Shown in pieces: positions 9,146-47,460 of a DNA stretch of 64,000 bases; the first letter of the stretch is position 1, and every line of letters begins with the position of its first letter. A program made the translations under genes and the position numbers. The notes beneath the pieces are model-generated. The model had not been told where the DNA came from. It was given only the letters and a program-made list of their open reading frames with translations, and did not search any database. The DNA is taken from assembly GCA_951406725.2 (NCBI GenBank), contig OX597828.1, positions 72,478,001-72,542,000 of the forward strand, read 5' to 3'. This stretch comes from Octopus vulgaris (lineage: Eukaryota).

Positions 9146-11128
9146 ACGTGTGTGTGTGTGTGTATGTGTGTGCATGTGTATGTGTGTGTATGTGTATGTG
9201 TGTGTGTGAGTGTGTGTATATATTTTGTCAGTTTATACACACACACACACATATATGTGTATATATATAAGCATACACGCACACACAGGCAACGCTAAAA
9301 CACACACGTATATATATATATATAATGAATGGATATCTATCTATCTATCTATCTATCTATCTATCTATCTATCTATCTATCTATCTATCTATCTATCTAT
9401 GTGTCTATCTATATCCACAGGGGCTATAGAATTAGACTACCATCTTGGATTAGGTCATATCTTTACATCATATTATCCATTACTGCTATTCTCTCTCCAC
9501 ATTATGTATGTCTATCTCATTATTCTTCCCCTTTTTGTATTCCTTTCTCAACATCCATTGTTCTTTGCTCTTCTACTACATATTTTTTTCCCTTTCTATA
9601 CAATCTGCAACCATATTCTGAAAAAGGCTAATGTCCAAAACCATATTACATCATTTTCCCTTTTGTTGAACGTCAAGTTAAGAACGTCCAAGTACCTAAC
9701 GCAATAAATCTCTTCTTTTGCACAAAATTACCCTTTTCATATGGAAAAGAAAAATCATGCCTGGCAGGACTTGTTGAGAATTCCAAAGAGAAGGGGAGAT
9801 AATTAGTAGATGATAAGTATATAATTCCCTGGAAGTGATGCGAGAGTTATAGACATACGTTTTTGTCTGTTTGAGCTCATCAGTTTAGTAGTTTGTAGCT
9901 GTGAATGTAGAAATATATTTTTTGACGTAAACAAAAGAAACCGATTTATCTATTTCCTGTCTTTCTGTCTGAACATCTCTCCCCCTTTCTCCCCCTTTCT
10001 CCACCCTTCTCTCTCTATGTATATATATATATATATAAACATATATATGAATACATATTTGTGTGTGTGTGTGCAGGTGTGTATGTCTATGTTTGTGTAA
10101 GCACACGTACAAATATACTTATACATAAATAGCTATCATTATATCTCTATGTATGTATGTACACACACACACACACACACACACACATATATATATATAT
10201 ACATATACATGTATATATATATATATATATATATATATATATATATAAATACAAAAATATGTGTGTATACAAACACACACACACACACACACACACACAT
10301 ATATATATACATACATAAGTGTTTTCACATAATTATGCGCACACACATTCATACATAAATGCATATAATTTCCCACGAAAAAAAAATATATACATATACA
10401 TATGTACAACATATGTATGTGTGTGTATGTGTCTGTGTGTGCATGTGCGTAAACACACATACAGGGTCTGATATACACATACATATATACATCCGCACAA
10501 AATCACTCTCAGTACCGACACGCGCATACATACATACACATATATTCTCGCGAATGTATCCGAAGAATGTCACAAAAACAAAGTTAATAAGATTTTAGGA
10601 TTTAAAATATGAAATTTAAACATTTCCGCAAAATGCAATTCTACATTGGAAATGCTGAAATCCCAGCATATCCCATTCTCTCACCCACTTAAAATCTACC
10701 AAAGACAAAAACCGTATTGTTAACAAAAGGATGTGCTCCAGCATGGTTACAGTAAAAAATGACTGAAACAAGTAAAAGAATAAAACAGTATATATACTTA
10801 CACACACACACACACACACACACACACACACACACACACACACACACACACATACATACATTATATCACTGCCGCGTATGACAAGATCCTTCGATGAAAC
10901 AGAGAATATTTTGTCGGATTCAAGTTCAAGAATTATTTTCATTTATATATAGAAGTATGTGCACTTATGTGTAGAATTACATGTGCACAGACACACATAC
11001 ACACACATATGTACACACACGCACACACACATACACACACACACATATATATATATATATATATATATATATATATATATATATACATGCATACATATAT
11101 ATGTGTAGGGCGTATATATATATATATA

Positions 11129-11524
11129 CTAGCAGTATCGCCCGGCGTTGCTCGGGTTCGTAAGGGAAATAACTATATAAGCATTTTTAGAGTTATAGCC
11201 AAAAAATAGCAAAAAATGCATTAAAAATGGAAAAAAAATGATGGTAGCTTTTTTTTAAAATCGTTGACTCATCGTAGACATTTTTAGAGAGTTACTTCCC
11301 TTATATGATAGCGAAAAAAATGCATTAAAATGGAAAAAAATGATGGTAATTTTTTTTAAAAATCGGAGACTCATCGTAGACGCGCGCTAATACTCAGAAG
11401 GGCTCGATATGAATCACGACTATAAGATACCCGGTTTTGGTTAAACTGCACCACAAAATGCGGGAGTCGTTAGGAATCTAAATCGTAGGAGAAAGACACA
11501 CAACTCCACTTTTATATATAAAGA
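11129..11524 (-). mobile_element. Non-autonomous Helitron
   Basis: The minus strand starts TC(TTTATATATAAAAG) and ends in CTAG. A GC-rich hairpin (CCCGAGCAACGCCGGG) lies just upstream of the end. The element sits between A and T and has an internal ~110-bp direct repeat. Confidence 0.85.
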
Positions 11525-11615
11525 TATATATGCATGACTGTATGTATGTATATTGCAAATGGATGTTTGCGAGAAAATATTTCATTTGCTCAACGGTTAA
11601 AAGGAAGGCAATGAT

Positions 11616-11650
11616 TCCTAACGTTTCGGTGAAAGTCCGTCATCAGAAGA
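11616..11650 (-). ncRNA. Minimal type I hammerhead ribozyme motif
   Basis: Minus strand: tctt CTGATGA c GG actttca CC GAAA CG TT agga. Stem I is 4 bp (1 G-U), stem II is 2 bp, and stem III is the AACGTT palindrome. Confidence 0.55.
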
Positions 11651-12069
11651 GACCTATATGAAGAAAGCGTAAGAGGGAAAGGGACTGAGATTCACACAGA
11701 TACACACATATAATTGTATAATTCACAGGCAAACGACAATGGTTAAATAGTTGTTATCCGGGACGTCAATAAAAGTTAAGCAACTAAAAGATGAAGGTCA
11801 TTATATTCAAGAAAAACTCTTTGCAATAGATTGAAAATTTGAATAATTGTGATTTGTACAATATTTAAGATTAGATCGTACATCTATACTAGTGGGACGG
11901 TTTACATCCTGCTAGCTTGGCCACTGCCCAGTGCCATACTTTGGTTAATCATGGCAAAAATAGAAATTAACACCTAAATTTAGAATGCATTTTTTTAATA
12001 ACACAAGTGTAATAAAAATAATGATAATGAGGATGATGATGATGATGATATGATGACGGTGTTATCATG

Positions 12070-46413: not shown

Positions 46414-46757
46414 CAGAATCTATGATAGAAAACTTTTGCTCAAAGAGTCGAGTGGTGGAAAAGAACCTGAAACCGCATGGTTGCAAAACGAATCTCTTAA
46501 CCACAGTGCCATACACCGACCATATGAAATATGTGATTGCAAATCGTGTGAGAGCAATAAAAAAACCCAGCTTCTTGGCTTGCTTCCAAGACACACGAGC
46601 CACAATAGATAAATATGGCATGAAATCGGTTTATTGAAATATCAATACAATTCCATTGTTTTGTACCAAAATTAAGTGGCTCTGTCTGTGTTGTTTACAA
46701 AGAAAGGAATCTGTGTATTTTACGGCAAAATTGGTTGTGTTTTTATCGGTTTTATTT

Positions 46758-47120
46758 GCGCATGCGTGACTGTGTGGTAAAGCGCTTGTTTCCCGACCAC
46801 ATGGTTCCGAGTTCAGTCCCGCTGCGTGGCAACTTAGGAAAGTGTATTCTACTATATCCTCGGGTCGATCAAAGCCTTGTGAGTGTTTTTGGTAGACGGA
46901 AACTGAAAGAAGCCCATCGTATGTATATATATATGTATGTCTGTGTGTGTGCGTACGTGTGTGTATGCGAACACATATGTGTCCGTGTCCCTCACCACTG
47001 CTTGAAACCGGTTTTGGTATGTTTACGTTCCCGTGTCTTAGTCGTCCAGGCTTCAAAAATTATTCAAAGGGGTGCCCTAGCATGGCCGCAGTCCAATAAC
47101 CGAAAGAAATAAAAGAACAA
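46758..47120 (+). mobile_element. SINE family A, diverged
   Basis: Collinear with family A. Confidence 0.8.
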
Positions 47121-47390
47121 AAGACAAACCGTTGGTTAAGACAGATCTAAAAGAGGATGAAAGTTCGACCAGTTAGAGAAATCAAAATTTCTCTCAAGGA
47201 CGATTTAATATAAATATGTTATAAAAACTGCTTTAAAACAAAGTGATGTTATGTTGCCAACTTAATGTGGCAGTCCCATGAAAGGGAAGAATGCTACTGC
47301 TATTTAGCCCTAGGAAACATCGTTTCGTGTTGGACTTGACACATTTCCTGTGTCCTCATGTTTTCGAAGTGGAGACAAGCACCTCCACCC

Positions 47391-47460
47391 AGCAAAGCCA
47401 GCACCAGAGACTAGTTTCAGAGTCATTGCTCATCATCAGTCTGGAGTAGAATGGCTTGCT
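47391..47460 (-). ncRNA. Type I hammerhead ribozyme with extended stem I
   Basis: Minus strand: AGCAAGCCA ttctact CCAGA CTGATGA t GAG caatga CTC t GAAA CTAG TC TCTGG tgc TGGCTTTGCT. The GUC site falls between 47409 and 47408. Confidence 0.85.

Follow-up and report, generated by a model that had tools for sequence, protein, structure and literature searches.

Type I hammerhead sequences of probable Penelope-like elements and retrozymes in a 64-kb stretch of the Octopus vulgaris genome

Minimal hammerhead ribozymes of Penelope-like elements (PLEs) occur in thousands per genome (PMC4209133), and PLE hammerheads that cleave as dimers (Lunse et al.) are treated in a review (PMC6765202). More than 6000 hammerhead motifs in 16 families have been reported from a coral and 120,000 from the axolotl (PMC7229834), and the non-coding elements known as retrozymes have been proposed to be PLE derivatives (bioRxiv 10.64898/2026.07.22.740005). 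Among cephalopods, Hydra-1_Obim, an octopus PLE with a hammerhead and a preference for (TA)n, is already present in the supplement of PMC8557442. An octopus repeat annotation includes 31 recently active Penelope-like families, in a paper whose main text contains neither the word ribozyme nor the word retrozyme (PMC13282606), and 235 Rfam hammerheads were counted in the giant squid (PMC6962438). Here we analyze a stretch of 64,000 nucleotides of Octopus vulgaris DNA (GCA_951406725.2, contig OX597828.1, positions 72,478,001 to 72,542,000), referred to below as the window, from a microsatellite-rich genome of 2.8 Gb in 227 contigs with 32% GC. The motifs found in it are very probably type I hammerhead sequences located at the 3' ends of PLEs and of non-coding retrozymes. 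Copies of these number in the tens of thousands, most of them truncated, and the motifs are likely to cut only as dimers paired through stem III.

A sequence-only reading of the window had reported five CUGANGA...GAAA...UH cores with stems I and II, at 11616, 33685, 34114, 39726 and 47391. All five were found at those coordinates and on the strands assigned to them, with residue 17 at positions 11620, 33724, 34118, 39731 and 47409, respectively. We refer to these carriers as A, C, D, E and F, and to the variant at 13477, which was also found and has a C at both positions 4 and 16.1, as B. The core residues (C3 U4 G5 A6 N7 G8 A9, G12 A13 A14 A15.1, U16.1 and H17) are complete in A, C, D, E and F, and incomplete in the window copies at 13477, 30816 and 9848. 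Loci retrieved elsewhere in the genome carry L-numbers. The hammerheads and the elements assigned to them are:

11616..11650, minus strand: minimal hammerhead of family A, stem III ACGT without a loop; low-copy or old carrier.
13477..13511, minus strand: hammerhead variant of family B with C4 and C16.1, predicted inactive; element at about 13359-13568 between (TA)n runs.
33685..33728, plus strand: minimal type I hammerhead of family C; stem I CCAC/GTGG, U.U at 10.1/11.1, stem III ACATTTGT.
33360..33816, plus strand: 5'-truncated end assigned to a young Hydra-type PLE; (TA)n runs on both sides, short tail arm in inverted orientation at 33360-33408.
34114..34165, minus strand: type I hammerhead of family D; stem I TGAG/CTCA, stem III ACGTACGT; passes the strict descriptor.
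33839..34416, minus strand: one unit plus 39 nt of a putative 545-bp non-coding tandem retrozyme in (TA)n.
39726..39813, minus strand: type I hammerhead of family E; stem II long, stem I with one mismatch in the window copy, stem III ACGATTGT.
39694..40092, both strands: two-armed inverted insertion assigned to an older Hydra-type PLE end; the plus arm (39927-40092) holds the hammerhead 3' half and the tail.
47391..47460, minus strand: full-size type I hammerhead of family F; 6-bp stem I, internal loop, outer helix, loop 2 CAAUGA, U.U at 10.1/11.1, stem III ACTAGT.
47242..47522, minus strand: part-unit copy of a putative circularly permuted retrozyme of 348 bp, flanked by target duplications of 13 bp with 1 mismatch.

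The palindromic stem III described for these loci held in principle and required correction in detail. The AACGTT quoted for 11616 includes A14 and residue 17, the stem itself being ACGT, and ACGATCGT, quoted for 39726, sits in the inverted partial arm at 39942-39949, whereas stem III at 39726 reads ACGATTGT.

We used three structural descriptors for the search. The strict descriptor (type I core and stems without extra base or mismatches) recovers one of the five window cores (D only). The second, which permits an extra base after A9 as in PMC4209133, recovers two (D and A), a number reached by 0-2 of 200 shuffles. The third, which permits in addition a mismatch at 10.1/11.1 and one stem I mismatch, recovers all five, against a shuffle mean of 0.18 and with none of 100 shuffles reaching five. 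As the latter was loosened post hoc, with the window loci already known, the fair test is provided by 60 other 10-kb stretches (600 kb in total), in which it yielded 30 matches compared to 0-4 in 15 shuffles. At the level of the whole genome, one exact core pattern matched 62,272 times and the reversed pattern, used as a control, 10,927 times (one locus can match twice), an excess of approximately 51,000 exact cores or 18 per Mb.

That all of this reflects chance matches in AT-rich, palindrome-rich DNA is extremely unlikely. Such an origin would account for the recovery of only one of five cores by the strict descriptor, for a control that equals about one sixth of the exact-pattern matches and for a candidate at 9848 that has no relatives; against it stand the excess over controls, the stem statistics given below and the fact that four of the five cores belong to families of more than 1000 candidates in which the core is kept. 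The counts refute chance for C, D, E and F and leave it as an explanation for 9848 only.

The density of hammerheads in the genome is high, as the sequence-only reading had proposed, but we claim no record, since descriptors differ between studies. The window itself is not special. It holds five exact-core matches at four loci where 1.4 are expected from the genome, and five structural matches where 3.2 are expected (P ~0.22); being 1.5-3 times richer than the genome average, it is somewhat rich in hammerheads, not exceptional, and near the ordinary level of the genome. The 600-kb random sample overestimates family B (8 exact cores seen versus 1.8 expected from the whole-genome count), and densities are therefore better taken from whole-genome counts. 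An Rfam search of the window gave nothing at gathering score; its E-value matches, among the best 150 listed, were microsatellite-driven miRNA models and one chance viral model. A generic repeat search of the window was dominated by microsatellites.

Family C connects the hammerhead to coding sequence. Its window copy is truncated to 450 bp and has a short tail in inverted orientation, and the family is young (40 scored copies are 99-100% alike, with 1269 candidates). The core is unchanged in 30 of 30 copies, with stem III reading ACATTTGT in 22 and ACAATTGT in eight. Five loci with long shared 5' sequence were extended, and coding sequence was linked to the hammerhead in 3 of 30 loci. Two of these, L152 and L247, encode a reverse transcriptase (RT) followed at the C-terminal end by a GIY-YIG endonuclease (EN) on the hammerhead strand; L247 has hammerhead, open reading frame (ORF) and hammerhead in a row with a spacing of 3594 bp, and L152 has the ORF with an inverted pseudo-long terminal repeat (pLTR). 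The motifs KWK, SDKT, CTCRDKSKC, CYLC and CRH of the protein are common to six aligned homologues and correspond to the features given for the Hydra clade in section 11 of PMC8557442. Seven homologues show 36-44% identity, and one in Octopus bimaculoides 81% over a short part. A Pfam search with the protein gave no match, a PDB sequence search with the Hydra alignment nothing meaningful, and five PLE protein queries against the window no PLE protein match inside it.

For family E (approximately 90% identity, 2707 candidates) the two arms of the window copy end at different sites, 39694 and 40092. L090 carries a decayed GIY-YIG end, 37% identical to that of C, about 930 bp upstream of the hammerhead and on the same strand, and the stretch between the two is shared in order with L157, from which it follows that E is also to be assigned to a Hydra-type PLE end. 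The same GIY-YIG remnant lies in the inverted arm of L080. RT/GIY-YIG sequence on the strand of the hammerhead is found in longer copies of both C and E, in the case of E as the EN remnant. The sequence-only reading had held the repeats at the different loci to be unrelated, which fails for this pair: C and E have CTGAAGATTG...CATGAAAC in common, and each is linked to Hydra-type coding sequence. A TA flank at the 3' end is present in 28 of 30 copies of C and 22 of 30 of E, against a background of 12-17%. Judged by motifs, RT/GIY-YIG order and (TA)n insertion, C and E are Hydra-type PLE ends and not separate non-autonomous families. Two further window segments resemble these families and are devoid of a hammerhead: a TA-flanked inverted end at 270-725, related to C (75% over 80 nt), and a tail fragment at 6353-6437, related to E.

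Family D consists of units of 545 bp with a longest stop-free stretch of 72 codons, 98-99% identical, in tandem and inverted arrays (1119 candidates). The hammerhead region is identical in 29 of 30 matches. Head-to-tail multimers reach six units in one arm. Among 13 D-type loci examined, ten of D and three of relatives at 76-90%, an inverted junction is present in 12; all 12 loci for which both ends can be seen are embedded in (TA)n, and the fully visible inverted loci (11 of 11) have one end at each of two fixed sites, which lie about 100 nt from each other. This is the tail and inversion pattern that PMC11167929 describes for PLEs. Four contig sets guessed to be RNA cover D, with a head-to-tail joint that is indistinguishable there from tandem DNA. 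On this DNA evidence D fits the definition of a retrozyme, and a young one.

Family F (approximately 90-96% identity, 1830 candidates) differs in several respects. Sequence past its 3' end recurs before its 5' end with a period of 348-349 bp, and its 3' end lies at one site in 18 and at a second in 10 of 30 copies. Copies that wrap round and copies longer than a unit were seen; among 30 loci there was no same-strand copy with two full hammerheads. Duplicated 10-mers flank 19 of 29 copies compared to 153 of 841 cross-locus controls, with internal repeats contributing to both figures, and no copy out of 30 ends in TA. By its sequence F is not minimal, as it has an extended stem I with an internal loop, like canonical type I motifs; the description of the hammerheads as always minimal is correct for A, C, D, E and family B.

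These data bear on the proposal of the sequence-only reading that all five carriers are independent, non-autonomous, ribozyme-bearing families resembling short interspersed elements (SINEs) and targeted to TA, which we regard as improbable. Most copies are indeed short, D and F wrap round, with a unit that has no long ORF in D and is putatively ORF-less in F, and B, C, D and E are TA-flanked. The proposal is contradicted for C and E, which continue into PLE coding sequence on their own strand and of which the window copies are truncated ends of protein-coding elements, and for F, where TA association is absent. What does stand is the presence of several families of Penelope or retrozyme type with a palindromic stem III, numerous genome-wide.

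Family B is one of the largest hammerhead families, and about three quarters of its exact cores, among those listed first, have a C at position 4. The copies with U4 may be a subfamily, or CpG decay may account for the difference. Genome-wide there are 8379 exact 27-nt cores with ACGTT and 61 with ACGCT, the latter corresponding to C16.1, and 24 of 30 3' ends are flanked by TA. With both C4 and C16.1 the window copy is probably dead, as judged from its core; U4C lowers activity and need not abolish it (PMC3088659). A 'dead-core subfamily', based on C16.1 in 30 of the 30 best copies, was rejected as the change occurs in only 61 of 8440 exact cores and in 0 of 11 from random stretches; the uniform result arose because the search favored the rare variant of the window. 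Rescue of the C16.1 pair by A-to-I editing was dropped together with it. For family A a DNA search returned only the window copy itself, and its core pattern gave six matches with different flanks and none for the control.

We compared stem structure across families in a set of 1.40 Mb that includes overlapping loci and chosen anchor loci, in which 267 motifs form 33 clusters, some of them interrelated. At stem III positions left unconstrained by the search, 53 of 60 pairs are Watson-Crick self-complementary (shuffles: mean 15.4, maximum 28), and for 34 distinct random-stretch matches picked on core and palindromic stem III alone, stem I reaches at least 4 bp in 13 (permuted partners: 0.9, maximum 5). 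N7 and residue 17 vary freely. Compared across families, stems I-III pair irrespective of their sequence; the copies of young families vary too little for a covariation test. As a monomer hairpin, stem III has a calculated energy of +2.1 to +6.4 kcal/mol or cannot close, and as a two-strand duplex -1.7 to -10.0 kcal/mol. The self-complementarity is in agreement with the published dimer model of PMC4209133, and the calculations predict that these families would likely cut RNA only when two copies pair via the palindromic stem III.

Across copies the 3' ends are fixed, at two alternative positions, the 5' ends vary, and a second, inverted arm is often present. Following the work of PMC11167929, a PLE protein would nick (TA)n for B, C, D and E, or ordinary DNA with a short duplication for F. 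Reverse transcription may then start at either of two sites close to the RNA's 3' end and would usually stop early, which would leave the hammerhead region as the part most often found. In tandem transcripts, whether from D arrays or from pLTR-ORF-pLTR copies, two hammerheads could pair and release unit-length RNA, in line with PMC4209133 and PMC7229834; this RNA may circularize, and copying may then pass round it more than once. Copies that stand alone, like the ones in the window, are probably inert products.

Several observations weigh against hammerheads of PLEs and retrozymes that act as dimers. C4 is present in 75 of the first 100 listed exact cores of B. A coding parent turned up for none of A, B, D and F (four extended loci for B, two for F), so that their helper is deduced from insertion shape alone. 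No whole unbroken ORF of C was seen, both long copies having a frameshift near the start and L247 lacking the EN end, and the coding evidence for E is the EN remnant only, with CELC. Minimum-energy folds of monomers do not give a hammerhead. Minimal hammerheads cut poorly (PMC4209133), hammerhead mutants had no effect on PLE insertion in vitro, where cutting needed protein (PMC11167929), and one of nine Xenopus retrozyme dimers cut (Li, Clavereau and Pollet, bioRxiv 10.64898/2026.07.22.740005). It could thus be argued that the motifs descend from real PLE hammerheads but that the ribozyme is irrelevant to mobility, with families amplifying regardless. The high frequency of C4 in so large a family, U.U at 10.1/11.1 in C, E and F, an insertion reaction for which the hammerhead is dispensable and the failure of the other eight Xenopus dimers would all be in keeping with this. 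We nevertheless consider it unlikely, as the structure of stems I and III is preserved across 33 clusters that differ in sequence, which needs selection at the level of families, and both U4C (PMC3088659) and U.U (axolotl, PMC7229834) are tolerated natural variants.

Within the reading that we prefer, PLE and retrozyme hammerheads cutting as paired dimers, a more specific and tentative possibility, which we think rather doubtful, is that the stem III palindrome particular to each of the dozens of co-resident families acts as a pairing code and restricts cutting to members of that family, and that D and F ride different Penelope helpers (TA-targeting for D, duplication-making for F). The use of a different helper by F than by D is in itself likely, given how the two insert. 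If the pairing-code reading is true, the genome is a natural library for tests of the dimer rule and of retrozyme-helper pairing.

Decayed copies had been reported near 9848, 30816 and 41587. The latter two are members of families; for 9848 a search of the genome found no relative, and it stays unconfirmed:

30812..30860, plus strand: decayed hammerhead with G at 17 and a broken stem I, of a common family with stem III ACTCAGAGT; homology to L145.
41587..41630, minus strand: decayed hammerhead from an old family; stem III ACAGGCTGT, eight relatives at 72-84%.
9848..9890, minus strand: possible decayed hammerhead with G12 changed to A; candidate.

Intact members exist in the family of 30816, which is also homologous to window 23905-24025 and 26244-26310. 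Window 23880-24075 and 26200-26400 (minus strand) are two truncated inverted ends of this family with the 3' half of the hammerhead only. In the family of 41587, core and stem III are kept in the five relatives compared, and L231 is intact.

A TA-flanked two-armed inverted element at window 7321-7561 is a copy without the cleavage-site block of a family that is stranger than the main finding. Its longer relatives (L250, L144, L103, L101 and L165) have their blocks in the order cleavage site, GAAA, CUGANGA, with a 5-nt spacer after A9; this order is that of type SGC as given in PMC10085705, in non-circularly permuted form. Visual comparison indicates that compensatory changes maintain stems I and III in L250, L144 and L103. 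An SGC descriptor applied to the 1.40 Mb passes L144, the unrelated L096 and one likely chance match, and nothing in the 600-kb random set; L096:2930-2990 is a second candidate SGC-order hammerhead, unrelated in sequence and with all three stems.

Other PLE coding sequences lie beside retrieved copies (L154:1430-5100, L158:881-3034 and L121:21-1000). One of these has RVT_1 and GIY-YIG matches and its own inverted hammerhead pair with stem III ACACGTGT. They also include an open frame of 718 codons with an inverted repeat. Elsewhere in the window, two tandem 466-bp units ending in (AAT)n are present at 12105-13027 and near 57250-57480, belonging to a common repeat with four matches in the 600 kb and no hammerhead fold found in it. 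A near-perfect hairpin with arms of about 55 bp at 52401-52550, of which the best Rfam E-value match is a plant miRNA model below gathering score, is probably an inverted element end or a miniature inverted-repeat transposable element (MITE). A broken fragment resembling an LTR retroelement lies at 44300-46350 (minus strand), with a short direct repeat near 44276 and 46325; by eye, we take its pieces to be gag- and integrase-like.

A search of the published literature, with subscription journals, Repbase and Dfam outside its scope, found no description of these families or of octopus retrozymes, and no cephalopod retrozyme was found in the animal-retrozyme texts covered (parts of PMC7229834 and bioRxiv 10.64898/2026.07.22.740005). 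Every component is already in print; the families described here are new, and the kind of element is not. The role of hammerheads in PLEs and the enzyme that moves retrozymes are open questions in the field, for which the young coding family C, the young retrozyme D and the diverse palindromic stems offer ready test pairs and cross-family support for the dimer fold. The data also suggest that PLE ends make up some of the short repeats left unclassified in octopus genomes.

In comparison to known systems, the hammerheads resemble the minimal motifs of metazoan PLEs as described in PMC4209133, which are of type I with short stems and palindromic 15.2-16.2, often with an extra base after A9; the genomes of that study likewise hold many families each, mostly as solitary truncated copies, with nearby copies on opposite strands. 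They differ in that the stem III palindromes here are often 8-12 nt and that G10.1-C11.1 is not constant (U.U in C, E and F), and the counts exceed the 2,000-9,000 reported there, with search patterns that differ. Family C agrees with the C-terminal EN+ PLEs of the Hydra clade as characterized by Craig et al. 2021 (PMC8557442) in its RW(K)-type motif, DKT, YRDD and CxCX5C linker, its GIY-YIG domain with CxxC and CxH, a hammerhead near the 3' end and (TA)n insertion. Unlike the members described there, it has an Asn-rich linker and a simple-repeat 3' region of 1-2 kb or longer, and as its hammerhead and protein differ by eye from those of Hydra-1_Obim, we consider it another family. Families D and F share with the animal non-LTR retrozymes (as described in PMC7229834 and bioRxiv 10.64898/2026.07.22.740005) low GC and a unit, ORF-less or putatively so, that holds one type I hammerhead; tandem copies (in D) and larger target duplications (in F) are further points of agreement, a PLE origin has been proposed for such retrozymes, and U.U at the base of stem II in F is also found in the axolotl HHR_Amex2 (PMC7229834). 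Unlike the retrozymes described in those sources, D is 545 bp long, TA-targeted and two-armed, F occurs mostly as about one unit, and both are known here from DNA.

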